A stretch of DNA of 47,869 bases from a virus (taxonomy: Duplodnaviria; Caudoviricetes): positions 1 to 47,869 of the IMG/VR virus record IMGVR_UViG_3300020045_008030, one strand, 5' to 3'. The notes below the pieces were generated by a model. It had not been told where the DNA came from. It ran no database searches and worked only from the letters and a program-made list of their open reading frames with translations. Each line of letters starts with the position of its first letter. Position 1 is the first letter of the stretch. Of this stretch, positions 1,028 to 47,869 are shown in pieces. The position numbers and the translations under genes are program-made.

Positions 1028-1034
1028 AGATATT

Positions 1035-3245: not shown

Positions 3246-3256
3246 AATTTAACAAA

Positions 3257-5105: not shown

Positions 5106-5553
5106 GGATGTTAGTATTTTAGATATTACTCCAGAGAATTACGTAGTGCCAACTGGCGAAGAAGACCGCTATCATGTTAAGATTGAAGTCAGAAAGTTTG
5201 ACTCGGAAAGCGGAGAGCGTTTGAGCCGTCCACGTATTCAAGTTTTTGGAAAAAAAGCTTATGAGCAAAACTTGAAAGAAAATCTTGTTAGACAAGGTTA
5301 TACTTTAGTTGAATTGCACAATCCAAATAAGTGGATTGAATCTCAATCTAAAATCAAAGCTGAAAATCTTCAAAAGGCTCAAGAAGCAAAGTCCAAATCT
5401 ATTGAAGACAAAAAAGCTTTGGAAGATGAGGAAAAGCAAAAAGCTATTAATGAAGCCGTAGCAAAAGCTTTAGCTGATAATGAAGCTAAAAATCAAAAGA
5501 CAATTGAAGAAGCCGTTGCAAAAGCTTTAGCCAGTCAACAAAAAAGTAAGTAA
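5086..5553 (+). CDS. Hypothetical head-module protein with AIxEAVAKALA repeats
   Basis: 155 aa ORF; paralogous copies at 85-483 and 47237-47743. Confidence 0.75.
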   Translation: MLNNKGKDVSILDITPENYVVPTGEEDRYHVKIEVRKFDSESGERLSRPRIQVFGKKAYEQNLKENLVRQGYTLVELHNPNKWIESQSKIKAENLQKAQEAKSKSIEDKKALEDEEKQKAINEAVAKALADNEAKNQKTIEEAVAKALASQQKSK

Positions 5554-5588
5554 TCATCATTAAAACATAAATTCAAAGGGTTAGAATT

Positions 5589-6533
5589 ATGGCACTCAAA
5601 AAAGAAGTATTAAAAGCAAATGCAGTTTTAGCAGGATTAACCGACGAGCAAATTACCGCAATTGAGAATCTTTCAAAAAATGATGAGGATTCAGTGTTAG
5701 GTACAAAAATTGGAGAAATTTACCGTGGAATGGATTCTTCAATTGCAACAATCACAGGTGTTCAGAGAGAGGGAGACGAAAAGACTTACAAGTATCTTGA
5801 GCGTGCAACCAAAACGCTAAAAGAATCCGCTGAAAAGGTCAATACTCTTCAAACGCAAATCACTGAATTGTCGAACGAAAAAACAAGACTTGAAAAGACA
5901 ATCAGTGAAGGAACATCCGATAAAGAAGCTGCAAAACAATTAGTTCAAGTAAAAGCAGAACTTGAGCAAACAAAAACCCAGTATCTTAGCTTAAAATCAG
6001 ACTACGACAAGGCAACTGAGACTCATAAAGCTGAATTGTTCGACAGTAAAATTTCAAGCGAATTAAACCTTGCTTCATCAGGATTGAAATTTAAGGCAGA
6101 CTTACCGAAAGAGGTAACGGGTGTAATGTTGAATACGGCTTTGTCAAAACTAAAAACTGAATATAAGCCTGATTATATTGACGATGGTCAAGGTGGCAAA
6201 AGATTAGTTTTCAGAAACAAAGACGGAGCGGTTTTAAACAATCCAGAAAATCAACTAAATCCATTTACCGCCCAAGAGCTTCTATCGAAGGAATTAACGC
6301 CAATTCTTGATACAGGAAGGCAACAAAGAGGTGGAGGAACTGGTGGAACTGGTGGAGCTGGTGGAGGCGGCCAAGTGATTGATATTAGTGGAGCAAAAAC
6401 AAGAGTTGAGGCAAACGAAATTGCAACTAAAACATTGCTTCAAAACGGATTAACAAAAGGTTCAAATGAGTTTGATGCTCAGATGAGCCAAATTTGGAAG
6501 GATAATAATATTGCATCGCTTCCAGAAAGATAA
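5589..6533 (+). CDS. Capsid scaffolding protein
   Basis: Coiled-coil-rich 314 aa with Gly-rich linker before a short C-terminal domain; immediately upstream of the capsid gene. Confidence 0.65.
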   Translation: MALKKEVLKANAVLAGLTDEQITAIENLSKNDEDSVLGTKIGEIYRGMDSSIATITGVQREGDEKTYKYLERATKTLKESAEKVNTLQTQITELSNEKTRLEKTISEGTSDKEAAKQLVQVKAELEQTKTQYLSLKSDYDKATETHKAELFDSKISSELNLASSGLKFKADLPKEVTGVMLNTALSKLKTEYKPDYIDDGQGGKRLVFRNKDGAVLNNPENQLNPFTAQELLSKELTPILDTGRQQRGGGTGGTGGAGGGGQVIDISGAKTRVEANEIATKTLLQNGLTKGSNEFDAQMSQIWKDNNIASLPER

Positions 6534-7804: not shown

Positions 7805-9109
7805 ATGTACAGATTAGCCGAAATTCAAAACTCCCTTAAAAATGTTGTAGGATGGAAACAAGCTTATGACCCAGCAAAATATATTGAGGCTTCTTTGACA
7901 AACTCAGAAAGCGGATTATTTTTTCAAGGTTGCCATCCTCTTTTAACTTTAGATAATATCAAATCAATCATGCCAGATGATTTTGATTTTAAGTACCCAA
8001 ATTGGCATAATAGTGCAAATTATTTAGTTGGTGAAAAAGTAAAACACACCAATAAAATTTACATTGCTTTATCAAACAATGTAAACAAAGAGCCAGACCA
8101 GAATTTTACAATTTGGAAAGAGTATAATTTTCTAAGTGACTTCTTAGAACAATTAGAACTTGATGGTATTGCGTCAGTTGTTCAAAACTTTATTCAATTA
8201 AAGCAACTGGACAATGAAACAAAAAATCTAATGGAGCGTAGAACCTTTTTTGATGGTTCTGGAAGAATAAAAGCTACTATTCCGAACCGTGGCAAAATTT
8301 GCGGTTACGAGATTGTTCCAGTTCGTTCTATGGGAGTAACTACAAAAATTGAAAGAATTGGTTTGCAAATGACTGGTGCAATTGGTATGATTACTATGTA
8401 CCTTTTCCATAGTTCACAAATTGACCCAGTAAGAACTTTTGAGCTTGATTTTACGCAAACCAATGGAGGCTTTCAGTGGTTTGTAATGGATGATTTATAC
8501 TTGCCTTATATTTCAGATGATACAAATAGTGGAGGTTCTTGGTTTTTGTGCTATAATCAAAATGATTTGCCTTATGGAGTGGAAGCTATTAATATTTCAA
8601 AGGATTGGAGTAGAGAACCTTGCGGAACTTGCAATCAAGGAGACATTGAAACATGGAGACAATTGACTAAATATTTACAGATTTCACCATTCACTTATCA
8701 AGCACCATTGACATTTGAGGAATATCCAGAATTTTGGGATATTGCAAGCACTATTTATACAAACACTTGCAACTATGGTATCAATGTTGAAGTAACAGTC
8801 GGATGTGATTTGACCGATTTTATTATTTCTCAACGCCATATTTTTAGCACCGTCATTCAAAAGCAAGTGGCGGCAAATTCTTTACGAACCTTAGCAATGA
8901 ATCCTAATGTAAATGTTGATAGAAGACAAGTGAATGCCTCAAGATTAGATATTCTTTATGAACTTGATGGTAATACACAGAGTGAAATTCCAAGCGGATT
9001 AGGGTTTGAATTAAAGCAAGCTTACAAAGCATTAAAAATTGATACTCAAGGCTTAGACAGGATTTGTCTAAAGTGTAATAATGGAGGTGTAAGATATAGA
9101 ACAGTATAA
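7805..9109 (+). CDS. Virion structural protein (head-tail region) with CBM5/12-like insertion
   Basis: ATG at 7805 preferred because the TTG at 7751 runs through the terminator; W-x5-Y-x2-G-x2-V...Y-x-A...P...W motif. Confidence 0.6.
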   Translation: MYRLAEIQNSLKNVVGWKQAYDPAKYIEASLTNSESGLFFQGCHPLLTLDNIKSIMPDDFDFKYPNWHNSANYLVGEKVKHTNKIYIALSNNVNKEPDQNFTIWKEYNFLSDFLEQLELDGIASVVQNFIQLKQLDNETKNLMERRTFFDGSGRIKATIPNRGKICGYEIVPVRSMGVTTKIERIGLQMTGAIGMITMYLFHSSQIDPVRTFELDFTQTNGGFQWFVMDDLYLPYISDDTNSGGSWFLCYNQNDLPYGVEAINISKDWSREPCGTCNQGDIETWRQLTKYLQISPFTYQAPLTFEEYPEFWDIASTIYTNTCNYGINVEVTVGCDLTDFIISQRHIFSTVIQKQVAANSLRTLAMNPNVNVDRRQVNASRLDILYELDGNTQSEIPSGLGFELKQAYKALKIDTQGLDRICLKCNNGGVRYRTV

Positions 9110-9908: not shown

Positions 9909-10464
9909 AGACATTCCAGTACTGACAAATCCACAATTGATTGATAAGGTAATTAGAGATATTCAAGTTGGATTGAAAGCAAATCTTAGTTGGCTAACTT
10001 ATGCCTTTGGCAAGGCTCAAAGGCTCGTCAAAATCATTAATGGTAAAAAATATTTTACTCCCAATGTTTACGCTGGCAAAGAAAGTTATATTGAAGTTTC
10101 GCCAACGTCAGATTATGGTAATTTTTCTTTCTTTTTCATTGATGACCCACAAGAAATTGAATGGCAACCAAAAATTCAAGGAAGATTAAATGCTAATTTT
10201 TCCTTGATTTTCTGGTTTAATATTGATAGGATTGAAGGGGCGGAGGGGCGAAACATTGAGTTTGTCAAATCTGAAATCTTAAAAACTCTAAACAGTAAGG
10301 TTTGGGTAAAAAATGGTAGATTTGAAATATCAAAAATTTACGAATTAAGCGAGAATGTTTACAAGGGCTTTTCTTTAGATGAAATTGAAAATCAATTTTT
10401 AATGCACCCTTTTTGCGGACTAAGATTTACAGGAAATTTAACTATAAACGAGAGTTGTTACTAA
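9895..10464 (+). CDS. Putative tail completion/terminator protein
   Basis: 189 aa; synteny only. Confidence 0.4.
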   Translation: MAKIEDIPVLTNPQLIDKVIRDIQVGLKANLSWLTYAFGKAQRLVKIINGKKYFTPNVYAGKESYIEVSPTSDYGNFSFFFIDDPQEIEWQPKIQGRLNANFSLIFWFNIDRIEGAEGRNIEFVKSEILKTLNSKVWVKNGRFEISKIYELSENVYKGFSLDEIENQFLMHPFCGLRFTGNLTINESCY

Positions 10465-19375: not shown

Positions 19376-21958
19376 ATGGCTTGGGAATCCCTAAAAAATG
19401 CTGTTTTGGATGTAATAAAAGCAAATGGCAGCAACCAAATAACAGGACCAGTATTACAAGAAACGCTTGTTTCAATTATCAACAATTTAGGCAATGATTG
19501 TTCTTTTGTTGGAGTAGCAACCACTACAACAGTTCCGAGCAATCCAGACGGAAAAGTGTTCTATTTAGCATCCACAGTTGGAACATATTCAAACTTTGCT
19601 TCATTGACAGTAGCAAATGGCGAAATTGCAATTCTAACAAATAGAACAGGTTCTTGGACAAAACAAGTACTTAGCATTACCTTGTCAGATGGATTTGTTA
19701 CAACTGATAAATTGGCGGACAATTCTGTAAGCACATCAAAAATCATTGATGGTGCAATTACTACTAATAAAATTGCAATTAATGCTATAACAGAAAGCAA
19801 AATTGCGGATAATCAAATAACTAATAAAAAAATACAAACATGGGTTTTAAATAACTTTGTATTTAATAAAGGTTTGGATTTCCGTACTGGCGAAATTGAG
19901 GCATTAAAGGTGTTGAAAAACATTCGGATAGAATGTGCAACGGCTAATTTGAGCGATGTATGGGTAGTGAAAGCTTTCACGAAAAATTTTACTACGGGAT
20001 TTGAGAACTATATCGAACTCCGAAATACTCGTACTAATACGGGTGTTTCTCGCAATTTTTCTGTAGCAGAACTTACAGCAGGTTACGCAGATATTTCGCT
20101 TAATAGTATATCGGGCTATGCGAATATGTTTGCTCGCATCTGGTTCGATTATTCGCAAACAACACAAACGGGATTGCTTATAAGCAGTAGCGATACAAGT
20201 AATATTGCTATTGTTCCCGTTACGGTTGCAGACCTTACAGCTAATACGGCGAACATTGCTACTAATACTGCGAACATTGCGTCTAATACTGCTAACATTA
20301 CGGCAAATGCTCTTCGTATTAATACCCTTAATCCTTATGTTCTTAATAGAGATGCAACATTTCGCACAGGCGAAATAGAAGCACTCAAAGTGCTGAAAAA
20401 CATCCGTATTGAATGTGCAACGGCTAATCTATCTGACGTTTGGGTTGTACGTGCGTTCACAAAAAATTGGACAACTACGGGATCAGAAAATCTAATTGAC
20501 CTTAGAAATACTCGTACAGGAACGGGTGTTTCTCGCAATTTTTCTGTAGCAGAACTTACAGCAGGTTACGCAGATATTTCGCTTAATAGTATATCGGGCT
20601 ATGCGAATATGTTCGCACGAATTTGGTTCGATTATTCGCAAACAACTCAGACGGGCTTATTAATTAGTAGTAGCGATACAAGTAATATCGCTATTGTTCC
20701 CGTTACGGTTGCAGACCTTACAGCTAATACGGCGAACATTGCTACATTACAGACAGCTACTACACAAAATACAGCAGACCTAAGCACTATGAAAAAAACA
20801 ACTTATGCAGTAGTTACAGGTACAGCAGCATCAGAACCAGGGTTCTATTTTCAGTCAACAGGTGTTTGGACTCCTTACGCAGGCTACCTGACGATTCTGT
20901 ACGATGTAAGTACTATTACAGCTAATATATATGCAACTGCAAGCAAAATAAATGGGACAGGGACTGCATTAGCGGTATATTTCGATGCCTCTATGAACCG
21001 ATTAGGAATGCAGTTTCAGGGTACTACAAGTAATGTAGCATATACAAGACAATTGCTTACAAGACCTACTAATACGAAGTATGTTGCATTGTGTAATTTT
21101 TCTTCGACAGAATATCCTTATCTCGAACAAGCAGTACAAACGCTTGTAGATGTTGTTACACTTGAAGCGAAAGTACTTACAGCAGAATCTAATATTGCTA
21201 CGATTTCTTCTCGAAATCAACACGGAGGGAAGAAAATTGTTTGGTTAGGGACATCTGTTCCGTTCGGGCAAAATTCTACAAAATCGTATGCTCAAGAAGC
21301 AGCAACAAAATTAGGATTTACGCTCGTGAATGCAAGTGTACCTGGACAAGCGATTCACGCTGACAATATTTCGGGGGTAATTACACCAAAAACCTACGGC
21401 TCTACAGTTTGTTCTAAGGCAGAATATGCCGCAGCAGACTGGACGATACAATCTGCACCAGTTACGCCTTATGTGCCGGGTGGAAGCTACAACAATTATT
21501 ACCGAACTTGGGAAAACATTTTCACTCCCGAAAATGCAGATGCAAGCTTGTGGGTTTTTGATGTTGCTCCCAACAATGCAGACTTTAGCCTAACAGACTG
21601 GAACGCATTCAATAAGTCGGCATGGGCTTATACAGACGGTAGTAGCTTTGCATCTCATCGTACCACATTTTATGGTGCAATTTTATTCTTAATGGACAAA
21701 ATGTATGCACTTAATCCGAATGCCCGTATGGTATTTGTGTTAGGTTCAGATTTTGCTTACGTAAATGGAAAGGCAGCTTTTGAAACCATAGCGGCACAAT
21801 GGAGCATACCCATTATCGACGTTTGGAAAAAAATTAATAAGACTTCAAAATCCCTTGAAGTAATAAAAAGCTTGGGTGGAACAGACTGGCATCCGAGTAC
21901 TTTTGCACATCAGAAATTAGGAGAGATTATTACGAATGAATTATTATTAATATCATAA
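19376..21958 (+). CDS. Tail fibre/spike with C-terminal SGNH/GDSL esterase domain
   Basis: N-terminal anchor, VTTDKLAD repeats, TANIA coiled-coil heptads; WLGTS block I, N-S-PG block II, DWHPS..H block V. Confidence 0.75.
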   Translation: MAWESLKNAVLDVIKANGSNQITGPVLQETLVSIINNLGNDCSFVGVATTTTVPSNPDGKVFYLASTVGTYSNFASLTVANGEIAILTNRTGSWTKQVLSITLSDGFVTTDKLADNSVSTSKIIDGAITTNKIAINAITESKIADNQITNKKIQTWVLNNFVFNKGLDFRTGEIEALKVLKNIRIECATANLSDVWVVKAFTKNFTTGFENYIELRNTRTNTGVSRNFSVAELTAGYADISLNSISGYANMFARIWFDYSQTTQTGLLISSSDTSNIAIVPVTVADLTANTANIATNTANIASNTANITANALRINTLNPYVLNRDATFRTGEIEALKVLKNIRIECATANLSDVWVVRAFTKNWTTTGSENLIDLRNTRTGTGVSRNFSVAELTAGYADISLNSISGYANMFARIWFDYSQTTQTGLLISSSDTSNIAIVPVTVADLTANTANIATLQTATTQNTADLSTMKKTTYAVVTGTAASEPGFYFQSTGVWTPYAGYLTILYDVSTITANIYATASKINGTGTALAVYFDASMNRLGMQFQGTTSNVAYTRQLLTRPTNTKYVALCNFSSTEYPYLEQAVQTLVDVVTLEAKVLTAESNIATISSRNQHGGKKIVWLGTSVPFGQNSTKSYAQEAATKLGFTLVNASVPGQAIHADNISGVITPKTYGSTVCSKAEYAAADWTIQSAPVTPYVPGGSYNNYYRTWENIFTPENADASLWVFDVAPNNADFSLTDWNAFNKSAWAYTDGSSFASHRTTFYGAILFLMDKMYALNPNARMVFVLGSDFAYVNGKAAFETIAAQWSIPIIDVWKKINKTSKSLEVIKSLGGTDWHPSTFAHQKLGEIITNELLLIS
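19880..20745 (+). repeat. Tandem duplication of a ~128-aa tail spike domain (~19880-20263 and ~20360-20745)
   Basis: FRTGEIEALKVLKNIRIECATAN...DLTANTANIA occurs twice. Confidence 0.9.
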
Positions 21959-23656: not shown

Positions 23657-23760
23657 AAAAAACTAAAAATAAAAACAATATCCTTTGTAATTAAATAAAT
23701 TACTTTTATGTTTGCATAGGAAATGAGAACAACCGTGTTCTCAGTAAAACAAGTAGAGCG
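23657..23760 (+). promoter_or_regulatory. Early promoter module plus leader hairpin
   Basis: TTTG 23684-87, N19, TATGTTTG 23707-14; GAGAAC-AACCGT-GTTCTC hairpin; AGTAGAGCG before the ATG. Confidence 0.8.
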
Positions 23761-24054
23761 ATGAAAAAAACAATTATTGAATCATGTCAAATATCATTTT
23801 CAAAAATAAATTTAGGTATTGAAAAAGAAGAATATACCAATGAGTATTTAGGTGTAAAACTTGGATATAGGGCTTTAAAATGGGAATATCTCATAAATGG
23901 TAAAACTTACCATGTAAAAAGCCATACAACTTTTAAAAAATCACTTAAAAACTCAAATTGTCACATATCAAGAATTACAAAACTTATTTACGATGGCATT
24001 GAGTTTGAAGACAATGACAAAAAATTAATTTCTTTTATTCTAAAAAACAAGTAG
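23761..24054 (+). CDS. Hypothetical early protein
   Basis: 97 aa, first gene after the promoter. Confidence 0.7.
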   Translation: MKKTIIESCQISFSKINLGIEKEEYTNEYLGVKLGYRALKWEYLINGKTYHVKSHTTFKKSLKNSNCHISRITKLIYDGIEFEDNDKKLISFILKNK

Positions 24055-24058
24055 AGCG

Positions 24059-24256
24059 ATGGAAAATACAATAAAGCAAAACGGAATGAACATTTTTATA
24101 GGAGAGCAAAGGAAAGCTTTTGCTCCTTATTATAGAGATGTTACAATAAGAAAGCAAATTGGAAACTTTGTAATAGTTTCCATAGGATTTGATTCTAAAG
24201 GAAATGATATTACAACTATGATTGATATTTGTGATGTATTGCCAAGGCAATTATAA
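24059..24256 (+). CDS. Hypothetical early protein
   Basis: 65 aa; same 18-nt start context as 23761. Confidence 0.7.
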   Translation: MENTIKQNGMNIFIGEQRKAFAPYYRDVTIRKQIGNFVIVSIGFDSKGNDITTMIDICDVLPRQL

Positions 24257-25300: not shown

Positions 25301-25656
25301 GAAAAGAACTTTTAAAAATATGTGTGCCTTTTGTTATTGCAAAATTAGCATACGAAAAAGGCTTTAAGGAACTATGTGTTTTCGGAGTGAATGAAGAAGA
25401 GCATTTTCCAATTGTAGATTCAGACGAAGAGTTTTTGTTTGAATATTTTGAGAAGCAAGATGATATTGAGGTTTATTATTGCCCAACTCATTTGCAGTTA
25501 ATTGATTGGCTTAATAAAACCCATGACATTCAAGTTTCATTAAAAGTAAATGGCTTATGGAGAGTTATTGCACCTTCTGGATATACTCTTTTCAAGGAGC
25601 ATATAACTGAATTTGAGGTTAATGATGCTATTTTTCTTGCCTTAAATTCAATTTAA
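25297..25656 (+). CDS. Hypothetical protein, paralog of 24289..24666
   Basis: Shared motifs, including the C-terminal FE.NDAIF.ALN. Confidence 0.75.
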   Translation: MRKELLKICVPFVIAKLAYEKGFKELCVFGVNEEEHFPIVDSDEEFLFEYFEKQDDIEVYYCPTHLQLIDWLNKTHDIQVSLKVNGLWRVIAPSGYTLFKEHITEFEVNDAIFLALNSI

Positions 25657-25694
25657 AAGGAAACCCCAACGGTGTGCAGTCCGTTGGGGTTTTT
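25655..25694. terminator. Bidirectional intrinsic terminator
   Basis: 12-bp perfect stem AAACCCCAACGG/CCGTTGGGGTTT with T tracts on both strands. Confidence 0.85.
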
Positions 25695-25726
25695 CGCAAT
25701 AACCGAGAGCGATGGACATTTGCGAT
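25655..25726 (-). ncRNA. Candidate ~70-nt regulatory small RNA (seed hairpin plus terminator)
   Basis: Own minus-strand promoter; UCGCAA/UUGCGA stem exposing AUCGCUCUC, complementary to the start-codon motif of several genes. Confidence 0.65.
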
Positions 25727-25729
25727 GCA

Positions 25730-25760
25730 CAAAATTACAGCAATTCAATTATTCTCCAAA
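25730..25760 (-). promoter_or_regulatory. Leftward promoter for the small RNA
   Basis: Minus strand TTTG (25760-57), N19, TAATTTTG (25737-30). Confidence 0.7.
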
Positions 25761-25800
25761 TTAAATTTCAAATATTTATCCTTATTTAAAAGCAAAATTC

Positions 25801-25831
25801 TTTGGTTTTTAAATAAAGTTTTATAATTTTG
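25801..25831 (+). promoter_or_regulatory. Rightward promoter of middle operon
   Basis: TTTG 25801-04, N19, TAATTTTG 25824-31. Confidence 0.75.
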
Positions 25832-25853: not shown

Positions 25854-26027
25854 ATGTCGGATACTTGCAAAGAGTGTGGAAATCCTATGGAGGTTACAGA
25901 TGGAGAATACAAAGAAACTGGAATCTATGGAGAAGAACCAGAAGTAATAACCCTTTGGGAGGAACGTACTTGCACGGTATGCGGACATTTTGAAAGCACA
26001 GAACCAGAATACAATGGGAAACTTTAG
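25854..26027 (+). CDS. Small zinc-ribbon protein (57 aa, not in ORF track)
   Basis: MSDTCKECGNPM...CTVCGHFES, two CxxC pairs. Confidence 0.65.
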   Translation: MSDTCKECGNPMEVTDGEYKETGIYGEEPEVITLWEERTCTVCGHFESTEPEYNGKL

Positions 26028-26250
26028 ATTAAAAGAAGCGATTGCCCGTTCGGAAATGAAGGGCAAAAAAGTCTTGAAGCAAGATATTTCTTCAAGACTA
26101 TGGAAGGATTCTTCCAAAGCTGCACAACAAGTAAATATGTCAAGCTTATTGAATGGCAGCCAAAAAAAGATTTCGCCTGAGTGGGTACCAATCATTTGCG
26201 AAATGCTAAATTGTTCGGCGGACTTCTTATTTGGTTTAAAAGATGAGTAA
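26014..26250 (+). CDS. Cro/XRE-like helix-turn-helix regulator
   Basis: 78 aa; ends ICEMLNCSADFLFG, a typical XRE C-terminus; no peptidase domain. Confidence 0.7.
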   Translation: MGNFRLKEAIARSEMKGKKVLKQDISSRLWKDSSKAAQQVNMSSLLNGSQKKISPEWVPIICEMLNCSADFLFGLKDE

Positions 26251-26428: not shown

Positions 26429-26437
26429 AAAAGAGCG

Positions 26438-27688
26438 ATGGAAAAGTATTCATTTCAACAAGTAGAAGGAGCATTAAATAAAATTGACATTGAAGGTCAA
26501 AGTCCAGAAAAGATAAAAGACAAGCTATTTGAAGAGCTTGGTAAGTTGCCAAACTTCAATACATTTGAACAAAATCTTTTCAATGAACAAGTAGAGCAAG
26601 CCTCATTTGAGATTGTGCCAGGCATGACAGTTGAGGAAATGAAAAACCTCTTCTTTGATAGAGATGCCTTAATTGAACCTCCTTATAAGGTATTCCAACT
26701 CAATTCAAAAGGTCACAGATATTACTACAAATTCAACGAATTTGGAGAGCCTGAATTTTATCCTTCTACTACTACAATCATAAGCCAAACAGTCAGGCAG
26801 TCTCCGCACTTGGTTGAGTGGATTGCCAATAAAGGAGTTGAAGAGGCTGAAAGGTATAAGCAAGAACGTGCCAATTACGGTACATTCATGCACGCACAAT
26901 TTCAAGAGCTGCTTATCAATAAGTCTTACGACCTTGACAGCCTAAAAGGAAAGCTAAAATTATATATTGATGCTCAAAAATTGCCTTCTGATTTTATTAA
27001 TTATGCTGATGAGTTGAAAAAAGACGTTTTGGCATTTGCTCAATTTGTAATGGATTACGATGTCAAGCCATTGGCAATTGAAATTGCGTTAGTTCATCCT
27101 ACTTGGAAATATGCGGGAATGCTTGATTTGCCTTGCACAATGAAAGAAAAAATAGGTAGCAAGAATAGAATTAATGCTATCATAGATTTCAAGTCTGGAC
27201 GCAAGGGGTTTTATGAAGACCACGAAATTCAATTGCATCTTTACAAGGAGCTTTGGAACGTAAATTTCAATCATTTAAAGATTGATAGAGTTTTTAATTT
27301 TTCGCCAAAAGACTGGAGAAAAACGCCAACTTACAACCTTAAAGACCAAACTGAAAGCAAGAACGCTAAAAAAATACCTTTCTTACTGGAGCTTGCTACA
27401 ATTGAAAACGATAAAAAGGAAAACATTTTTGTCGCTACAAACGGGAAAATATCACTCGAAGGGAAAAGTGATTTATCTCAGAATATTATTTCTCTTACTC
27501 TTTCGGAGTTGATTAAGACAAAAGCCCCAAAAGACAAGTTTGAAACAAAGCCAAAAATTGATTTTTCTGTTATTCCAGGCATTCAACTGACTGAAACGCA
27601 AAAACTTACGCCAGAAATGCCAGAACCGAAAATTGATGTAAAAAAAGATGACAAAAGAAATCTTCTAAAAGACGACCCAGAAGTATGA
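26438..27688 (+). CDS. PD-(D/E)XK exonuclease (recombination)
   Basis: PSTTTII, GTFMH, YAGMLD, IIDFKSG and QLHLY motifs. Confidence 0.8.
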   Translation: MEKYSFQQVEGALNKIDIEGQSPEKIKDKLFEELGKLPNFNTFEQNLFNEQVEQASFEIVPGMTVEEMKNLFFDRDALIEPPYKVFQLNSKGHRYYYKFNEFGEPEFYPSTTTIISQTVRQSPHLVEWIANKGVEEAERYKQERANYGTFMHAQFQELLINKSYDLDSLKGKLKLYIDAQKLPSDFINYADELKKDVLAFAQFVMDYDVKPLAIEIALVHPTWKYAGMLDLPCTMKEKIGSKNRINAIIDFKSGRKGFYEDHEIQLHLYKELWNVNFNHLKIDRVFNFSPKDWRKTPTYNLKDQTESKNAKKIPFLLELATIENDKKENIFVATNGKISLEGKSDLSQNIISLTLSELIKTKAPKDKFETKPKIDFSVIPGIQLTETQKLTPEMPEPKIDVKKDDKRNLLKDDPEV

Positions 27689-27945: not shown

Positions 27946-28640
27946 ATGGCAGAATTAAAAGACCCAATGCAGACTTAGAAAAGTCTGCATTGCCAATCAT
28001 CGGGAAAATAAAGATTGGCTTAAAAAACGAAAGAGGTTTTCCGCAAAGCGTCGATTATTTTATTGCTTCTGGTAGATACGTAGGATTGTTTGAAAAAGTT
28101 TATGATAAGCCTCAAACTATTCAAATAGTGTTTCTCGAAGATGACCCAAGCAAAGTTTGTCGTGAAGAGTATGAGTATAGGGATAATGAAGGTAGATTGT
28201 TAGCCGCTGGTGACGGTGAAACCTTCAAGATTTGGAACGGAAAAGCTTATGAGACGGTAAATACTATTGATTACCCTAATTTAATGCAAGGAGTGTCAAA
28301 TAAATACCCAAATAAGCTACAAAAAAATGGAAGTAACGGATGGACAATCTCTTTGACATTGAATTTTGCTATTCCTTGCATTCGTGGAGTGGCTGGATTA
28401 TGGCAATTTGTGACGAAAGGCAGTGCTTCAACTATTCCTTCTATTCGTAATGCTTTTGATGCTATGTTGAAAGAGAAAGGATTTTGCAAAGGGATTATTT
28501 TTGATTTGAATGTTAAGTTTGCAACAACTCAAAAGCCAAACGACAAATCAAAATTTCCAGTTGTGACATTAGTTGCAAACGAAAGTGACGAAAATATACT
28601 AAAACTTAAACAGGCTATGCAGCCGAAAATTGAGCAATGA
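27942..28640 (+). CDS. Recombination-associated protein (Gp3-like/RDF-like family)
   Basis: LP.IGKIKIG.K...G.P...DYF N-terminus; lies next to the exonuclease. Confidence 0.5.
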   Translation: MNGRIKRPNADLEKSALPIIGKIKIGLKNERGFPQSVDYFIASGRYVGLFEKVYDKPQTIQIVFLEDDPSKVCREEYEYRDNEGRLLAAGDGETFKIWNGKAYETVNTIDYPNLMQGVSNKYPNKLQKNGSNGWTISLTLNFAIPCIRGVAGLWQFVTKGSASTIPSIRNAFDAMLKEKGFCKGIIFDLNVKFATTQKPNDKSKFPVVTLVANESDENILKLKQAMQPKIEQ

Positions 28641-28969
28641 GAGCAATAGATGAACTAAAGAAATTGCATGAGATTAGTTGTGATATTGTTGCAATTGCTA
28701 GAGATAAAAATGGATTAGTATTTTTTTACTATAACTCAATTCCTGATAAGTGCTTAACAAATGGAACTTGGAATAATGCAGATTCTGAATATGTTGAAGA
28801 ATTTGAAAAAATTGAGTTTGATAGCGATAATTGGGAAGAGTGCATTATCACTATTCATGATTTTGAAGATTATGAAATCAAAATGATGTCAATTTCAATT
28901 TCGGAATACAATCGTTTATTGGAGTGCGAAAAGAAGTTAAAGCAAATAGAGTCTTTTTTTAATCAATAG
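28637..28969 (+). CDS. Hypothetical protein
   Basis: 110 aa, IARDKNG motif, coupled start. Confidence 0.65.
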   Translation: MRAIDELKKLHEISCDIVAIARDKNGLVFFYYNSIPDKCLTNGTWNNADSEYVEEFEKIEFDSDNWEECIITIHDFEDYEIKMMSISISEYNRLLECEKKLKQIESFFNQ

Positions 28970-28997: not shown

Positions 28998-29474
28998 ATG
29001 ATTATAAAATTGTATGTAAATGGTGAAGGATACAAACCATTTGAATATTCATCATTAGATGAACTAAAAGAAGAATTTGCGAAAAGAAACATTTCAATCG
29101 GGAATGGCAGTTCAATCGGGAATCGCAGTTCAATCGGGGATGGCAGTTCAATCGGGGATGGCAGTTCAATCGGGGATGGCAGTTCAATCGGGGATGGCAG
29201 TTCAATCGGGAATCGCAGTTCAATCGGGGATGGCAGTTCAATCGGGGATGGCAGTTCAATACAAAAGACAATCGTTATTAATGGTAGTCGTCACGCCTTG
29301 TTTTACTATGGCGATAATATTTCTATTGGTTGTCAATCATATTCAGTATCAGAATGGAAAGAAAATTTTGTCGAAATAGGTAATGATTATGGATATTCTG
29401 AAAGTGAAATTGAAGAGTACAAAGCATACATTGATATTTGTGAGAATATTGACTTTTCTTCTAATAAATTTTAA
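28998..29474 (+). CDS. Hexapeptide-repeat (beta-helix) protein
   Basis: Nine SIG(D/N)(G/R)S repeats followed by an IGCQ...W domain. Confidence 0.75.
29094..29260 (+). repeat. 18-bp tandem repeat x9
   Basis: TCAATCGGG(G/A)AT(G/C)GCAGT with no spacers. Confidence 0.95.
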
Positions 29475-29478: not shown

Positions 29479-29509
29479 TTTGGTATTGCAAGAATTATCT
29501 TTATTTTTG
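29479..29509 (+). promoter_or_regulatory. Promoter of replication operon
   Basis: TTTG 29479-82, N19, TATTTTTG 29502-09. Confidence 0.7.
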
Positions 29510-29513
29510 TAAA

Positions 29514-29605
29514 AATTATTCGACTACCACCGAATAACAAGACATTGCTAACTCATTAGCATAAAGCCCGTTCAAGTGTGTGGTAGCCTTGTTTCGGGCT
29601 TTTTT
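29514..29605 (+). ncRNA. Structured 5' leader/attenuator (three hairpins, kissing loops)
   Basis: TTATTCG-ACTACCAC-CGAATAA; TGCTAA-CTCA-TTAGCA; AAAGCCCG..CAAG-TGTGTGGTAGC-CTTG..CGGGCTTT followed by a T run. Confidence 0.65.
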
Positions 29606-29609
29606 CATT

Positions 29610-30431: not shown

Positions 30432-31338
30432 TATTCAAAAACAAAACACTGAAATTGCAATTTTTCAACCAAGCTCTAAAGCTGTTGAAGTTCGCAGACA
30501 AATGCTTGATTCTCCTCATTTAGAATCATTGACCAGAATTGATAAGAGTGTCTTTCTTGCATCGACAAAAACAAGCATTTCAGACATTGACGATGCAACA
30601 TTAGTGAACAGGACTTCCCAACTCTTTCGATTTATTGCAAAAGATGTTGGCTATCGAATACCGACGGACTCAAATGATTGGGCTTACAATTGTACAAGAA
30701 TTTTAGATTTCATCAAGAAGTACTATTCAAACCTAAGCTTAGACGAAATCAAATTAGCCTTTGAATTGTCTGTTTTCGGTGAACTTGATGAGTTCTTGCC
30801 AAAAGACGCAAAGGGACAGCCAGATAATAAGCATTATCAAGAATTTAACATTGACTATTTTTCTAAGATTTTAAGGGCCTATAAATCCAAGCAGTCAATA
30901 TCTATATCAAAAGCCTATAAAGCCTTACCAGAGCCAAAAAAAGAGCCTCCACGTGAATATTTGACTGCACTTGAGAATAATACAAAGTATGATTTAGTAA
31001 TGTCATACCTTTTTTACAAGTATCATCGAAAATATCCAGAAGTTTCATTTTTAGCTGAAATGCTTTTTTCTGAAATTTTGATTAAAGTCGGATTGATTGA
31101 TTCTATTCAAATCATAGACTCAGACTTAAACGAAGCTAAAAAGATAGTTATGAGTAGAATCTCAGCAGGATTTATTAATAAGTTTCTTGGAAATATGATT
31201 CTAAAGCAAGGAATTGAGCATGATGAAATTAAAAATTGTGCTTATGTAGTGGCAAGAAAAAGAGAAATCATATCTTGTTTTGATGAAATAATTAGTGAGG
31301 AAATAAATATTTTCAACTTTATAAAATTTGAGCGATGA
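30424..31338 (+). CDS. Hypothetical replication-associated protein
   Basis: 304 aa following the initiator; LSLDEIKLAFE motif. Confidence 0.55.
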   Translation: MNSIQKQNTEIAIFQPSSKAVEVRRQMLDSPHLESLTRIDKSVFLASTKTSISDIDDATLVNRTSQLFRFIAKDVGYRIPTDSNDWAYNCTRILDFIKKYYSNLSLDEIKLAFELSVFGELDEFLPKDAKGQPDNKHYQEFNIDYFSKILRAYKSKQSISISKAYKALPEPKKEPPREYLTALENNTKYDLVMSYLFYKYHRKYPEVSFLAEMLFSEILIKVGLIDSIQIIDSDLNEAKKIVMSRISAGFINKFLGNMILKQGIEHDEIKNCAYVVARKREIISCFDEIISEEINIFNFIKFER

Positions 31339-32476: not shown

Positions 32477-32529
32477 CAGAAACAAAAAATATCCAGCGTG
32501 AGGGGTTTCACGCAAAAACTGAGAGCAAA

Positions 32530-35543: not shown

Positions 35544-35547
35544 AGCG

Positions 35548-36363
35548 ATGGACGCAACAAAAGGAGTGTTATTCTTCGACACTGAAACAACAGGTTTGCC
35601 CGCTAAGGGTGCAAAGTATGATGCCGACTTTATGGAATTTCCGCACATGGTATCATTAGCTTGGTCATTAAATGGTCAAGAATACGAGTATATTATTAAG
35701 CCAAACGGCTATGTTATTCCTCAGGAAGTCACTGAAATTCATGGGATTTCACACGACTATGCAATGGAACATGGCATAAATGTTGAATTAGTTTTAAGAG
35801 CTTTCTTCCAAGATGCGATAGAAGCAGATTTTGTGTGTGCTCACAACATTTATTTTGATGTTTCAATCATCAAAGCAAGCGTTTTAAGAAGCTTAGGTAA
35901 GGAGTATTATGATTTGTATGCTGAAATAGCACTTGATAAAGCGAAAAGAATTGATACAATGATGAAGACGATTAAATTCGTTGGTGCATTGTATGCCAAT
36001 GGTAAGCCTGGCAAATTCCCCAAACTTGAGGAGCTTTATCAAAAGCTTTTCCCAAATGAAACGTTCAACGCTCACAATGCTTTAGAAGATGTTAGGGCTT
36101 TAGTTCGTTGCCTTCCAGAACTTGTAAGATTAGGCATCATTGAATTAAAGCTTAAAGAGTACCCAATTGAGCCTAAAATTGAGTTTCCTGGTGCAAATGT
36201 TAAAGCAAATACACTTGAAGATATTCCAGTTGAGAATGTTTCAAAAATAGAGTTTTCAGATACAAAAGTTGAAATGGTTTTAGATGTTAAGCCATCACAA
36301 CTTGAAAACCTCAATAAAACGCTTGAAAAATCTAACAAGCTTCTTGACGAAGACAATTTTTAA
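35548..36363 (+). CDS. DnaQ-like DEDDh 3'-5' exonuclease
   Basis: FDTETTG, HNIYFD and HNALED motifs. Confidence 0.9.
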   Translation: MDATKGVLFFDTETTGLPAKGAKYDADFMEFPHMVSLAWSLNGQEYEYIIKPNGYVIPQEVTEIHGISHDYAMEHGINVELVLRAFFQDAIEADFVCAHNIYFDVSIIKASVLRSLGKEYYDLYAEIALDKAKRIDTMMKTIKFVGALYANGKPGKFPKLEELYQKLFPNETFNAHNALEDVRALVRCLPELVRLGIIELKLKEYPIEPKIEFPGANVKANTLEDIPVENVSKIEFSDTKVEMVLDVKPSQLENLNKTLEKSNKLLDEDNF

Positions 36364-40020: not shown

Positions 40021-40027
40021 AAAAGCG

Positions 40028-40585
40028 ATGGATAAACTAACCCCGAATGATGGCGATTTAATCGCCATGATTAAAAGTCTAATTGGCGAAATGCCTACAA
40101 TCTACGATAGAGTAGATAGATTAGAATTTAATCTAAATGCTTCATCAGTAGAGCAAATGACTAAAATTGCTATCACAGAAGCAATAAAAGGCAAATTAGG
40201 CAAAAGGCTAATTTCATGTAATTTGGTTGATGATAACAAAAAAATCATCTTCTTTGCCAAAATTGATAATTACAAAGATTATCCGATTGAAGTGCGAGAA
40301 ATGCTTGTAGAACCAGAAGAGTTAGCAGGAACAAAGTATATTAGCAGAAACTTACACGTTCACGCTTTGAAGATTGAAAGAGAAAACCTTGAAAATCTCT
40401 TGAAGTTTACTGGTGGCGGGACAATGGAAATTCCAAGAACATCACAAGGAATAGCAAAATACAGTTTCATTGATTCGTTTGGTACAATGGTAACGGCACT
40501 CGAAGGACTTTATATTGTGAAATTAGAGTCTGGTAAGTTCAAGATAATGTCAGAGCCTGAATTTAAAGAAAATTACTATATATAG
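40028..40585 (+). CDS. Hypothetical protein with C-terminal G.YIVK...G.F......F...Y domain
   Basis: 185 aa; AGCGATG start context. Confidence 0.7.
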   Translation: MDKLTPNDGDLIAMIKSLIGEMPTIYDRVDRLEFNLNASSVEQMTKIAITEAIKGKLGKRLISCNLVDDNKKIIFFAKIDNYKDYPIEVREMLVEPEELAGTKYISRNLHVHALKIERENLENLLKFTGGGTMEIPRTSQGIAKYSFIDSFGTMVTALEGLYIVKLESGKFKIMSEPEFKENYYI

Positions 40586-42391: not shown

Positions 42392-43953
42392 TGGATAATG
42401 TAGAAAATAATGAGAAACTTGAAGCCTATAAAGCTTTAATTGCTAACCCAGAAGCTTTAGTTTTGCACGCTTCACGGAAAAGACTATTAAACTTTTCCCG
42501 TTTTGTTTATCCAGAAATGATAGTAGAAAACTTTCACCAGGTGTATTATACTATTTTGGATATGTTCGCACATAAAAAAATTAAAAAACTTATTGTGCAA
42601 CAGCCTCCACAACATGGTAAGTCACAGGGTTCAAGTAGATTTTTGCCCGCTTATATGTTAGGGCTTAATCCTGATGAAAAAATATTCATTGGTTCTTATG
42701 CTGCAACAGTCGCAAGAGATTTTAACCGAGATGTTCAAAGGATTATAGATTCTCCTTTTTATCGTTCACTATTCCCAACAACTCGCCTAAACGGTTCAAA
42801 TGCCGTAACAATGTCAAATACTTTTTTAAGGAATTCAGACGTATTTGAGATTGTAGGTAAAAAAGGAAGTTTAAGGGTTGTTGGTCGTGGAGGTTCATTG
42901 ACAGGAAAAACAGTTGATGTAAGTATTTTAGATGACGTTTACAAAGACTATGCAGAGGGAAATAGTCCAATTGTAAGAGAAGCGGCTTGGAAATGGTACA
43001 CAACAGTTGTAAGGACCAGGCTTCATAACGATTCACAAGAGTTAATTGTATTCACTCGCTGGAATGATGATGATGTGATTGGTAGATTAGAAAAGTCTGG
43101 TGAATTAATTATTGAAATTACATCATGGAAAGACTTAGAAAACATTCCAGAAGGTGCATGGGTGCGATTAAACTTTGAAGCACTTAAAACAGGATTGCCA
43201 ACCGAGTTAGACCCAAGGCAACAGTCAGAAGCTTTGTGGGATAATCGTCACTCAAGAACAAAGCTCGAAGCACAAAAAAGGCTCGACCCAGTGCAATTTG
43301 AATGTTTATATCAGGGAAATGCAGGAAACTCAGAAGGGAAACTTTATCAACCCTTCAAAGTTTGGGCAGAAAAATCAGAATGGGGAAGTTTTATCCGTTC
43401 GGGGAATTATACAGACGTTGCAGACGATGGCAACGATATGTTATTTTCTGCTTGTTACGATATTTACAAATCAGAAAATCAAATCTTCAACGAAAGGACC
43501 AAAAGGTTTGAACCTTTACTTTTCGCACTCATTACCGACATGGAAATGACAAGCGAAAATACAGATATTACAACTGTTACAATTCCTCAAATGATTAATC
43601 GAAACGGCACGCAACGGGCTTGGATTGAAAGTAATGGAGGAGGCTCACAGTTTGAAAAAGTGATTAAGAAAAAAATAAAGGCTCAAACTTTTCCTTTTCA
43701 TCAGAAAGGGAACAAAGAAAGCCGTATTATCACATCGTCCGCAATGGTCAATCAACATATAATTATGCCACTTGGTTGGGAGACACGATACAAAAAGATT
43801 TATGACCATATCACTGGATTTTTAAGGAACTTTTCAGCTAATACGCACGATGACCCAGAAGACGGATTAACTGGTATTTACGAAAAAGAAATAGCAGAGG
43901 GAAATATTAGACCTTATTCGCATGAAAATAGAGGTGTTAAGGTTAGAAATTAA
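42388..43953 (+). CDS. terL: Terminase large subunit
   Basis: Walker A PPQHGKS, Walker B ILDD, TRW..DD, LYQG.., nuclease DVAD / IESN / HDD..D. Confidence 0.95.
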   Translation: MMDNVENNEKLEAYKALIANPEALVLHASRKRLLNFSRFVYPEMIVENFHQVYYTILDMFAHKKIKKLIVQQPPQHGKSQGSSRFLPAYMLGLNPDEKIFIGSYAATVARDFNRDVQRIIDSPFYRSLFPTTRLNGSNAVTMSNTFLRNSDVFEIVGKKGSLRVVGRGGSLTGKTVDVSILDDVYKDYAEGNSPIVREAAWKWYTTVVRTRLHNDSQELIVFTRWNDDDVIGRLEKSGELIIEITSWKDLENIPEGAWVRLNFEALKTGLPTELDPRQQSEALWDNRHSRTKLEAQKRLDPVQFECLYQGNAGNSEGKLYQPFKVWAEKSEWGSFIRSGNYTDVADDGNDMLFSACYDIYKSENQIFNERTKRFEPLLFALITDMEMTSENTDITTVTIPQMINRNGTQRAWIESNGGGSQFEKVIKKKIKAQTFPFHQKGNKESRIITSSAMVNQHIIMPLGWETRYKKIYDHITGFLRNFSANTHDDPEDGLTGIYEKEIAEGNIRPYSHENRGVKVRN

Positions 43954-44057
43954 AAAAATCTAAAAATAAAAACAAAATCCTTTGATATTAAAGAAATTCC
44001 TGTTATCTTCGATGTAAGAAATGAGAACAACGGTGTTCCATTAAAACAAGTAGAGCG
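43954..44057 (+). promoter_or_regulatory. Early promoter module plus leader (copy C)
   Basis: TTTG 43981-84, N19, TATCTTCG 44004-11; near-identical flanks to 23657-23760. Confidence 0.7.
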
Positions 44058-44216
44058 ATGAAAACGTCAAAAAACTTTCAAAAAACAATGAATGCTTACT
44101 TAGCAAAAAAACAGTTCAGATTGGCTTATGCGTCATTTGTAAAAATGAATGAAGCAAGATTAATTGAAGGGTTGCAGGCTTTAACAATGCCAAACTTACA
44201 AGCAAGATTTCAATAA
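44058..44216 (+). CDS. Small basic protein (52 aa, not in ORF track; cassette allele C, gene 1)
   Basis: MKTSKNFQKTMNAYLAKKQFRLAY...; follows the AGTAGAGCG leader. Confidence 0.65.
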   Translation: MKTSKNFQKTMNAYLAKKQFRLAYASFVKMNEARLIEGLQALTMPNLQARFQ

Positions 44217-44272
44217 AGGAGATTGATTCTCCTTTACTACTTTTTTTAACTTTAATAATTAAAACTATCACA

Positions 44273-44593
44273 ATGAAAAAATTATTATTAGCCTTTTTAC
44301 TACTTTTTAGTATTACTGTTTTTTCTCAAACGGTTAATCCAGAAACTAAAAGTCTTCCAGTATTCAAAGAAGACATCAATAGTCTTAATTATGTTGAAAA
44401 TTCTGATACTCATCATGCAGGATTTAAGTCGGCAAAGTTTCTATTCCTTGAAAAATATGTTTTTATAGATGAAACAGTTTACTATGTTTGTTATGATAAG
44501 AATAGTAAAAAGTGGATTGTGTTTGCCGTATTCCTCAGGAAGTATAATTTATGGCATATAAACAGAAAGTTTCTTTATCTTTTAACATTTTAA
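44273..44593 (+). CDS. Secreted protein with signal peptide (cassette allele C, gene 2)
   Basis: MKKLLLAFLLLFSITVFS-Q, a Bacteroidota-type signal peptide followed by Gln. Confidence 0.7.
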   Translation: MKKLLLAFLLLFSITVFSQTVNPETKSLPVFKEDINSLNYVENSDTHHAGFKSAKFLFLEKYVFIDETVYYVCYDKNSKKWIVFAVFLRKYNLWHINRKFLYLLTF

Positions 44594-44600
44594 TTTTCTC

Positions 44601-44631
44601 AATGGATGGCTTAAATAGTCATCCATTTTTT
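44601..44631 (+). terminator. Terminator of cassette C
   Basis: AATGGATGGCT-TAAAT-AGTCATCCATTTTTT. Confidence 0.8.
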
Positions 44632-44635
44632 GTTG

Positions 44636-44860
44636 TTAACATAAAAAGCCACAAACACAAGAACAATCGAATAATTTATTTACATTTGTATATCGAAAAT
44701 GGGCAAAGGGTAAGCCCTATTAAATAAATTTTAAAGTTAAAACAAAAATAATTATGGTTTGTTCATGCCCACTTTCGGCAGCTTTGCCAACTTTGCCAGC
44801 AATCACTTGTATAGAAGATTTCGGGCAAATTCAAAAAGTAGCATTTCAGCGTATTTTTAA
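44636..44860 (+). repeat. 225-bp exact direct repeat of 2495-2719
   Basis: Base-by-base identity; sequences diverge on both sides. Confidence 0.9.
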
Positions 44861-45386
44861 AGCAGATGGTTCAAAGAATAGTTTTTTGGCAACTGCAGAT
44901 ATGAAACTAAAGGCATCATGGACACCGCTTTTAGTTGCCGCTGATGATACTAAAGTAGTAATTAGTCCATACATTCAAGCCCCAACAACTGAACCGGGTG
45001 CCGCTCGTGAGTTCGGTGGAGGCAATGAAACTCTTGGTGGTGTAAGTATTATTGTTGGGCGTGAGCCAAGTCCTTTTACTGGAGTTTTTAGAGGTGCGCC
45101 ACAAAGTGTTATTAAAATTCTTAAAACTTTACAATGTGAAAACATTGGTGTTTATTTGTTTGATGAAAATGGTGCAATTGGTGCGATTGAAGACACGACT
45201 ACAGCGGGTAAATATTATCCGATTCCAATTCGTTCTTTGTTTGTTTCCGATAAAGGTTTTGGCGGTTTAGAAGCTCCAGACACAAACAACATTCAATGGA
45301 TGTATCTTCCCAATTATTCTGACGACTTGAAAAAAGTAAAACCAACAGATTTCAATCCTTTGACTGATTTAGTCGCAAGTTTATAA
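44754..45386 (+). CDS. Probable major tail protein, divergent copy 2
   Basis: 210 aa, few amino-acid changes but many synonymous changes versus 2613..3245. Confidence 0.5.
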   Translation: MVCSCPLSAALPTLPAITCIEDFGQIQKVAFQRIFKADGSKNSFLATADMKLKASWTPLLVAADDTKVVISPYIQAPTTEPGAAREFGGGNETLGGVSIIVGREPSPFTGVFRGAPQSVIKILKTLQCENIGVYLFDENGAIGAIEDTTTAGKYYPIPIRSLFVSDKGFGGLEAPDTNNIQWMYLPNYSDDLKKVKPTDFNPLTDLVASL

Positions 45387-45398
45387 CATCAAACGACT

Positions 45399-45632
45399 AT
45401 GGCAAAATTCACCAATGTAGAGCTTGAGACTTTAGATTCAAGTATAAGGCAAACATTTGAAATCAATCACGCTGAAAGAATTCTTCGAATTAGGGAAAGT
45501 GGTTGGCGTTTACCAAGTGATTCAAATTATTATTTAGACGACAATGGGATTGGATATAAAGAAAGCAAAAGAGGAGGTAAAGGCTCAAAAGAAACGCCAA
45601 ACGATTCAGAAGGCAGTAGCTCACCAGAATAG
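45399..45632 (+). CDS. Hypothetical protein, copy 2
   Basis: Paralog of 3257..3490. Confidence 0.7.
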   Translation: MAKFTNVELETLDSSIRQTFEINHAERILRIRESGWRLPSDSNYYLDDNGIGYKESKRGGKGSKETPNDSEGSSSPE

Positions 45633-47743: not shown

Positions 47744-47782
47744 TATCAAATCAATCAAAAATTAATTCAAAGGGTTAGAATT

Positions 47783-47869
47783 ATGGCACTTAAATCAGAA
47801 ATATTAAAGGCAAATGCAGTATTGTCAACATTGACAGCCGAACAAATAACTGCAATTGAAACATTGTCT
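47783..47869 (+). CDS. Scaffold gene 5' end (cut by window edge)
   Basis: MALKSEILKANAVLSTLTAEQITAIETLS. Confidence 0.7.
   Translation, partial: MALKSEILKANAVLSTLTAEQITAIETLS

Follow-up and report, generated by a model that had tools for sequence, protein, structure and literature searches.

The analysed stretch of DNA (the window) is the complete IMG/VR virus record IMGVR_UViG_3300020045_008030, 47,869 nucleotides (nt) long, of a Bacteroidota siphophage. On the minus strand at 25726-25655 it carries a predicted small RNA whose exposed loop is complementary to short sequence tags at the starts of several distant early genes. This RNA is probably a trans-acting antisense regulator that damps translation of early DNA-metabolism genes, as a brake or a timer. 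The promoter-stem-loop-terminator anatomy of the unit, its conservation, the tags, and concerted changes of loop and tag at orthologous genes were all established at the sequence level.

The unit was delimited on the window as follows.

25757-25760, minus strand (CAAA on the plus strand): -33 box TTTG of the predicted RNA promoter, after the Bacteroidota consensus given in PMC7366714
25730-25737, minus strand: -7 box TAATTTTG (TAnnTTTG), which reads CAAAATTA on the plus strand
25726-25655, minus strand: predicted small RNA of about 70-72 nt, its start placed 4-5 nt past the -7 box
25720-25725, minus strand: 5' arm of the first stem in the predicted fold, UCGCAA
25705-25713, minus strand: exposed seed loop AUCGCUCUC in the predicted fold, with pairing extendable over 25701-25717
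25694-25699, minus strand: 3' arm of the first stem in the predicted fold, UUGCGA
25655-25692, minus strand: intrinsic terminator, a 12-bp hairpin at 25692-25661 followed by a U tail

The minus-strand arrangement TTTG-N19-TAATTTTG fits the Bacteroidota sigma-A consensus of PMC7366714; a sigma-70 scan was uninformative for promoters of this phylum. In the predicted fold the UCGCAA/UUGCGA stem leaves the loop open, with unpaired probabilities of 0.8-1.0. The original prediction had described a promoter pointing into a 12-bp terminator and a stem exposing this loop, and both held in position and in fold. The folding z value of the entire unit was -3.6, with the terminator as the strongest contributor. 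The terminator hairpin has U tails on both strands and could also end the upstream plus-strand operon. As is expected of a trans-acting small RNA (sRNA), the unit has its own promoter and intrinsic terminator at the sequence level and no conserved open reading frame (ORF). A search against Rfam gave no matches in the window at E<=1 and, in five relatives, only tRNAs at the gathering score.

The tags complementary to the loop lie on the plus strand at the following gene starts (aa, amino acids).

23755-23763, plus strand: tag AGAGCGATG, over the start of an unknown 97-aa gene, the first one after an early promoter module
24053-24063, plus strand: tag AGAGCGATGGA (11 nt), over the start of a 65-aa unknown gene
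26432-26442, plus strand: tag AGAGCGATGGA (11 nt), over the start of the exonuclease gene (phrog_298)
28639-28644, plus strand: weaker candidate tag GAGAGC, just past the ATG of a 110-aa gene
31330-31337, plus strand: tag GAGCGATG, over the start of the Holliday junction resolvase gene (phrog_1770)
32517-32526, plus strand: tag AACTGAGAGC with one G-U pair, just upstream of the AAA/SMC-like ATPase gene (32530)
35544-35553, plus strand: tag AGCGATGGAC, over the start of a DEDDh exonuclease gene (PF00929)
40024-40032, plus strand: tag AGCGATGGA, over the start of a nucleotide pyrophosphohydrolase gene (phrog_4159)
44052-44060, plus strand: tag AGAGCGATG, over the start of a 52-aa gene behind the second early promoter module

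All eight target sites of the original prediction were present, and the first genes behind both early promoter modules (tags at 23755 and 44052) were among them, as it had claimed; the GAGAGC candidate at 28639, with a cofolding rank of 7 of 62, is an addition. The motif AGCGATG occurs nine times on the plus strand and twice on the minus strand. Seven of the plus-strand copies are at ORF starts, one is at the RNA locus and one is inside a tail gene. The proposed check for enrichment of this motif at starts was positive: AGCG precedes 7 of 59 ATG starts and 2 of 945 other plus-strand ATGs (Fisher p 5.6e-8), and a blind k-mer enrichment scan of the start regions ranked AGCGATG top. When the RNA was cofolded with 62 starts, six of the eight sites took ranks 1-6 and the remaining two ranks 11 and 15; the top score, that of 32530, is possibly inflated by extra pairing to the terminator arm. 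The exonuclease is the most constant target in the family, and the ortholog of the AAA/SMC-like ATPase is tagged in most relatives examined. The position of the tag relative to the AUG differs among orthologs, from about -30 to +15, and in the window and most relatives the predicted duplex covers the AUG or the first codons. Some tags are located at internal genes without a nearby promoter. The claim that the tagged genes are non-structural was borne out when six phages were pooled (34/240 early vs 1/120 late starts, p 7e-6); however, it did not reach significance in the window alone (7/41 early vs 0/21 late starts, p 0.084).

Relatives were gathered via the exonuclease protein, with the seed unused, as the best 80 of 342 and the best 80 of 132 confirmed stretches; a locus search with the exonuclease of the window as a single protein had given no matches, and an alignment query succeeded. 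The unit was found in 148 of these 160 loci, nine others having less than 2 kb of flank and three lacking the unit. The loci are heavily redundant gut phages; therefore, 148/160 expresses prevalence and not a number of independent events. An exact 14-mer scan mixes true units with chance matches and fixes the seed by construction, and for this reason the counts rest on the protein-anchored sets. The exact 18-mer core was present in 135 of the 148 loci, and CGCUCUCGGU was invariant in 23 aligned homologs, most of them found through the seed. Of 39 distinct homologous cores, 37 had a -7 box of the form TAnnTTTG, in which nn took six forms; the core pattern itself demanded most of this box, and a promoter-blind search recovered the same loci. 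Although the 67 distinct 3' hairpins differ widely in sequence, every one folds at -13.8 kcal/mol or better, and in all but one of the 67 distinct 3' domains (66 of 67) it is the RNA strand that bears the longer U tail (mean 6.9 vs 2.6 U per 10 nt).

Cultured phages gave a consistent picture. The portal protein of the window has 63-65% identity with those of Elizabethkingia phage TCUEAP2, Parabacteroides phage PDS1 and Alistipes phage AS73P1, 51% with B40-8 and 44.5% with Croceibacter phage P2559S. In TCUEAP2 and PDS1 the unit occupies the equivalent place. In the marine phage P2559S it is inverted and lies on the coding strand with the CGCUCUCGGU core kept, and all nine genomic copies of the coding-strand CGAGAGC are at gene starts. 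The whole unit is inverted in P2559S and in loci L234, L240 and L254, and it is still antisense to the tags. Two observations concern the annotation of PDS1 (L005). The annotated TTG start of gp11 runs through the RNA locus, its likely start being an ATG near 4616, and the tag falls in codons 5-7 counted from that ATG. An unannotated ORF with a tagged start runs from about 3197.

Enrichment of the tags was limited to phages with the matching RNA. Seed-A tags were found at 7/41 early starts in the window, 3/43 in TCUEAP2, 6/40 in PDS1 and 8/45 in P2559S, and at none in B40-8, BK649P1, P2559Y, PD691P3 and BF486P2. Phages of the same host thus differ (8/45 in P2559S vs 0/28 in P2559Y; 6/40 in PDS1 vs 0/33 in PD691P3), and a generic host initiation motif is thereby ruled out. 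B40-8, BK649P1 and BF698P1 carry a promoter-terminator unit in the same place upstream of the same helix-turn-helix (HTH) gene, with UUGUUACUAC, and their early leaders carry GUAGUAAC. Tags of this clade are located 18-30 nt ahead of the AUG, which is left uncovered. Seed-B tags occur at 8/45 early starts in BK649P1. We also used a blind procedure, in which the complement of start-enriched 8-mers was sought inside promoter-terminator units with no seed supplied. With this procedure the RNA came out on top in three phages (the window, P2559S and BK649P1) and shared the first place in PDS1; in TCUEAP2 and B40-8 it did not come first.

An HTH-anchored search, in which 36 of its 80 loci were examined, picked as more diverse, yielded further units with other loops. 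The predicted tags were written down before the orthologous exonuclease and ATPase starts were read. In a large clade with CGUAUCGCC, the AUG is directly preceded by GCGAUACG. Locus L239, nested in this clade, has an altered loop and a 14-nt mirror of it at the exonuclease start; in L224 the loop is AU-rich and unrelated, and its mirror at this start is 16 nt long; nested variants changed on both the loop and the tag sides were also seen in L240 (10 nt) and L234 (9 nt). A perfect complement of at least 8 nt between a locus's own RNA and its own exonuclease start was present in 31 of 36 loci that have both a unit and this start, compared with 3.8% for shuffled RNAs. Among 13 seed-class representatives, including four misses, the match to the exonuclease start averaged 9.3 nt for the own RNA and 5.7 nt for foreign ones (permutation p 1e-5), and at the ATPase start 8.6 vs 5.6 nt (p 6e-5); the choice of representatives removes relatedness in part. 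Two seed-D "starts" (L246 9167 and L256 7595) correspond to the RNA locus read on the opposite strand and were excluded as targets. On the exonuclease tree, loop and tag changes fall on several separate branches, with many forks weakly supported and L224 forming a long branch. Variants compatible with G-U pairing occur at the 32517 site and in L255/L256. A covariance model of seed class A found the window, which was in its training set, and L234 (E 3e-5); it reached the P2559S unit at E 0.88 and found no seed-D or seed-B unit, so that homology among the seed classes is not shown by profile.

Covariation of the loop and the start motif in relatives had been set in advance as a check, and it was found on the orthologous exonuclease and ATPase starts. 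Together, conservation, inversion and covariation strongly support the core claim of the original prediction, that the loop would pair in trans with several early-gene starts.

A number of results weigh against this interpretation. RNAalifold, applied to a MAFFT alignment of seed class A, gave no compensatory pairs in 12; the first stem is invariant within this class, and covariation therefore offers no evidence for it. The units were chosen by eye from a list of promoter-terminator pairs, that of L254 after its tags had been seen. Seed-B tags in B40-8 alone were not significant (2/26, p 0.07). In 5 of the 36 loci, the TCUEAP2 exonuclease included, the match was shorter than 8 nt, and the 8-mer of L230/L231 is off-seed. 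The breadth of the 9-nt matches genome-wide varies: 6/67 starts in L239, 3/55 in L224 (one a virion gene), 3/64 in L234 (one off-seed), 2/62 in L240 (p 0.053) and 0/42 in L245. The AU-rich RNA of L224 also matches four starts of an unrelated record. No matching loop/tag pair was found in P2559Y or BF486P2, and PD691P3 gave a weak one. Strandless contigs from 8 of 23 listed runs showed no RNA ends; a short contig from a wastewater RNA run crosses the locus but runs into the promoter, and thus shows nothing about the RNA. Finally, in 3 of 151 loci with enough flank (L352, L353 and L369), the 5' domain of the RNA and both divergent promoters are deleted with the tags kept, and a similar deletion was seen in two runs (X6 and X7) of one study. 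The RNA is therefore not always needed, being dispensable in at least one lineage or recently lost. These deletion variants are natural null alleles for comparison, and strand-specific RNA sequencing of PDS1-infected cells exists (bioRxiv 2024.11.17.624012).

Two units in the phages with weak or missing pairs deserve mention. BF486P2 (L211) has at 9980-10086 on the minus strand a promoter, an 8-bp closing stem and a terminator, back-to-back with the gene at 10126; a matching start tag was not found. PD691P3 (L210) has a promoter-terminator unit at 1718-1827 on the plus strand, located between the terminase and the tail genes, that contains 12 nt complementary to two early leaders, that of the ATPase gene included. 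The latter is a weak candidate for another seed class.

The most probable course of action is the following. Host RNA polymerase would make the RNA from its sigma-A-type promoter from the start of infection, and the open loop would nucleate a 7-16-bp duplex in trans on the tagged early mRNAs. The duplex would block translation initiation, since it would lie over the AUG, over the first codons or over A-rich positions favourable to initiation; in Bacteroidota, such upstream positions replace the Shine-Dalgarno (SD) site (PMC7366714). The stable RNA would accumulate with time and genome copy number, and the exonuclease, the SMC-like ATPase, the resolvase and other early genes would be turned down with the virion genes left free. 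We favour a brake or timer because the tags are almost confined to non-virion genes, with the nuclease and the SMC-like ATPase as the most constant targets.

The main job of the same RNA and the same pairing might instead be exclusion of a superinfecting relative or persistence in a carrier state, with the seed classes as immunity groups. The original prediction had offered an immunity or carrier-state role as one option; we consider it possible but unlikely. The first genes behind the early promoters are among the targets, several distinct seed classes exist, PDS1 and its host coexist for days (PMC10773633), and the heteroimmunity of P1 and P7 rests on c4 RNA (PMC12197685). However, neither the window nor five relatives yielded a tyrosine integrase, PDS1 made no stable lysogens (PMC10773633), and its persistence has been attributed to phase variation of the host capsule (bioRxiv 2024.11.17.624012). 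One seed is common to phages of Parabacteroides, Elizabethkingia and Croceibacter, unlike what would be expected of fast-diversifying immunity determinants. In addition, a pattern scan of species genomes gave ten matches, seven of them due to chance and three genuine; the latter lie on 45-47 kb phage-like contigs, with no signs of integration in the stretches read.

It is rather improbable that the RNA pairs with the tags to activate or guide, by recruiting ribosomes or a processing protein. A duplex over the AUG or the first codons, as predicted in the window and most relatives, should block initiation; the leaders are A-rich and weakly structured, hence there is little to unfold; and the tagged genes are kept in the deletion variants. 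On the other side stand the reported indifference of Bacteroidota ribosomes to SD sites, the free AUG in the B40-8 clade and the ability of the phage sRNA PreS to activate (bioRxiv 2024.10.31.621285).

We regard as very improbable that a phage protein binds the tag, as DNA or as RNA, with the complementary copy serving as an operator or decoy and no pairing between RNAs. A conserved HTH gene does lie nearby, and most tags of the B40-8 clade are in repeated promoter modules. However, the extra copy is always antisense inside the promoter-terminator unit, whichever strand this occupies, so that an RNA decoy would have the wrong strand. Moreover, changes in single lineages are mirrored base for base over up to 14-16 nt, tags also occur at internal genes with no promoter nearby, and the variants at 32517 and in L255/L256 are compatible with G-U pairing. 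Lastly, a 25-aa plus-strand ORF exists at 25712-25789, but the notion that the site is merely its start with a generic host initiation motif, or a chance match, is refuted and retains next to no probability, since the ATG is not conserved (24 of the 39 distinct cores lack it, and in 11 of the 15 that have it, it opens only 1-3 codons), phages that share a host differ in their tags, and the unit is inverted in P2559S.

Extending the brake or timer to the whole phage family gives a wider reading, which we put forward tentatively, as a plausible case rather than the expected one. Early-gene shut-off in a lytic Bacteroidota phage family, from gut to sea, would depend on one reprogrammable guide-like RNA instead of on a protein repressor. 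A 7-14-nt start tag would bring a gene into the regulon, and loop and tags would have been re-coded jointly on several occasions, with orthogonal regulons and maybe exclusion of kin as the outcome. If so, this RNA family would provide orphan start-associated tags, such as the Start Associated Sequences (SAS) of mycobacteriophages, with the partner they lack. The turn-down of early genes in lytic phages without a repressor or a polymerase of their own is poorly known, and the phage sRNAs reviewed in PMC12197685 are mostly from temperate phages of Proteobacteria. The predicted RNA is present in cultured phages with culturable hosts (PDS1, P2559S, TCUEAP2, B40-8 and BK649P1), which makes it directly testable. 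The orthogonal loop/tag pairs found in nature are relevant to the question of what binds start-associated sequences. They also point to compact translational switches for use in Bacteroidota, where SD sites are not used.

The homologous portal and an early-gene order common to the relatives resembling B40-8 and PDS1 place the window phage among these Bacteroidota siphophages. The virion and lysis genes are located at about 2.6-23.6 kb, the early and DNA-metabolism genes at about 23.7-42 kb. Positions 1-5700 and 43067-47869 are duplicated contig ends with 78-82% identity, partly inverted; at this level of identity, they probably mix two related strains (a chimeric assembly). Neither stretch includes the RNA locus. 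The AGAGCG tag is missing from the inverted second promoter module (gene at 1301, minus strand). The surroundings of the unit include two further features.

25801-25831, plus strand: divergent promoter-like site TTTG-N19-TAATTTTG
26014-26250, plus strand: 78-aa probable HTH protein, conserved across the family, for which all top Foldseek rows are Cro/CI-type HTH and none is significant

The unit had been described as back-to-back with the promoter of a Cro-like HTH gene. A divergent promoter-like site is indeed present; however, the first gene behind it is a 57-aa Cys-rich ORF (25854), and the HTH gene is the second. The HTH assignment is based on non-significant structure matches, a single-sequence model (pLDDT 68) giving no significant Foldseek match (E >= 0.59), and on the annotation of PDS1. 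The distance between the unit and the HTH gene ranges from about 150 to 3900 nt among relatives, in which the unit occupies either strand. Because distance and strand vary and the HTH match is non-significant, the proposed "repressor position" and the analogy with CI are weak.

Several other features were observed in the window. The leader of a probable replication-initiator gene (29610), at 29483-29606, contains a promoter, GACUACCAC and a hairpin containing GUGUGGUAG. The same complementary pair recurs in PD691P3 (35676), L230, L238 and L251, which suggests a conserved attenuator-like switch. Internal repeats are present at 19880-20745 in a tail-fibre-like gene (85% identity) and at 29090-29260 in the 158-aa gene at 28998.

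In relatives, outside the window, short units of a second class were observed. They lie on the coding strand, often in tandem arrays of 2-4, and consist of a TAnnTTTG promoter, a variable AU-rich part of 30-60 nt and a terminator-like hairpin with a conserved UUGYGAAA loop. They were located in L236 (about 5500-5850 and 8750-9000), L232, L250, L244, L242, L230, L224 and L239, and similar hairpins occur in B40-8 (L206, about 16660), BK649P1 and PD691P3. CAU (anti-AUG) is present in 25 of 27 distinct units (shuffle mean 10.9, maximum 19). None of 33 CAU-centred 12-mers matched its own locus, the units had no Rfam match, and a host search with the complement of one such RNA gave control-level results. 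These units may be arrays of anti-start-codon sRNAs directed against mRNAs of the host or of other phages.

No description of the predicted RNA was found in the literature searched. The terms "small RNA" and "sRNA" do not occur in the two PDS1 papers (PMC10773633; bioRxiv 2024.11.17.624012), respectively. Two catalogues of structured RNAs did not contain the seed strings in their searchable supplements; their alignment archives lay outside the search and may hold an anonymous listing.

Comparison with known systems places the RNA, as predicted, with trans-acting sRNAs: a short accessible seed faces several distant mRNAs, with covariation, although the breadth is small in some relatives. The CI RNA of phage P4 is a small structured immunity RNA whose loops pair with targets on its own transcript; it is processed from a transcript under its control and causes premature termination. 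The RNA described here, in contrast, has its own predicted promoter and terminator, and its targets are translation starts.

The closest functional likeness is with the c4 antisense RNA of P1 and P7, a structured phage RNA in which loop complements around a translation start block translation and sequence differences between phages set the specificity (PMC12197685). Here too, the complement lies in a predicted loop and matches the translation start region of phage mRNA. However, c4, as described in that source, targets the antirepressor mRNA of temperate phages, for immunity, whereas the tags here are on dispersed early genes (exonuclease, resolvase, ATPase, DEDDh nuclease, pyrophosphohydrolase and unknowns) of a phage in which an integrase was not found, and the Rfam C4-type covariance models had no match in the window. 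Thus, the predicted RNA works like the c4 RNA of P1/P7 but is not a member of that family.

GibS of Bacteroides thetaiotaomicron is a trans-acting sRNA of the same phylum that pairs across start codons and represses, without an SD site (PMC7366714). It differs, according to the same source, in being host-encoded, with a long unstructured seed and metabolic targets, and the Rfam search showed no homology to it.

The SAS of cluster K mycobacteriophages is an asymmetric repeated tag beside ATG starts of non-structural genes only, with a single copy of opposite orientation in four genomes (PMC3203893). The tags studied here are likewise asymmetric, in one orientation, and on non-structural genes, as the pooled counts from the six phages indicate. 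SAS is, however, a 13-bp motif with an SD core, found in phages of Actinobacteria 3-7 bp upstream, and PMC3203893 leaves open whether its partner is RNA or protein. The tag found here is of AGAGCG type, has no SD, often lies over the AUG, and co-varies with an antisense loop bounded by a promoter and a terminator; the two have no sequence relationship.

SviR of the Vibrio satellite PLE, PreS of lambda and VpdS of VP882 are also multi-target trans-acting sRNAs of phages or satellites (bioRxiv 2022.04.08.487710, 2024.10.31.621285). As described there, these Proteobacteria systems act largely on mRNAs of the host or of a helper phage, whereas in the family studied here the phage's own genes appear to bear a dedicated tag that co-evolves with the RNA.
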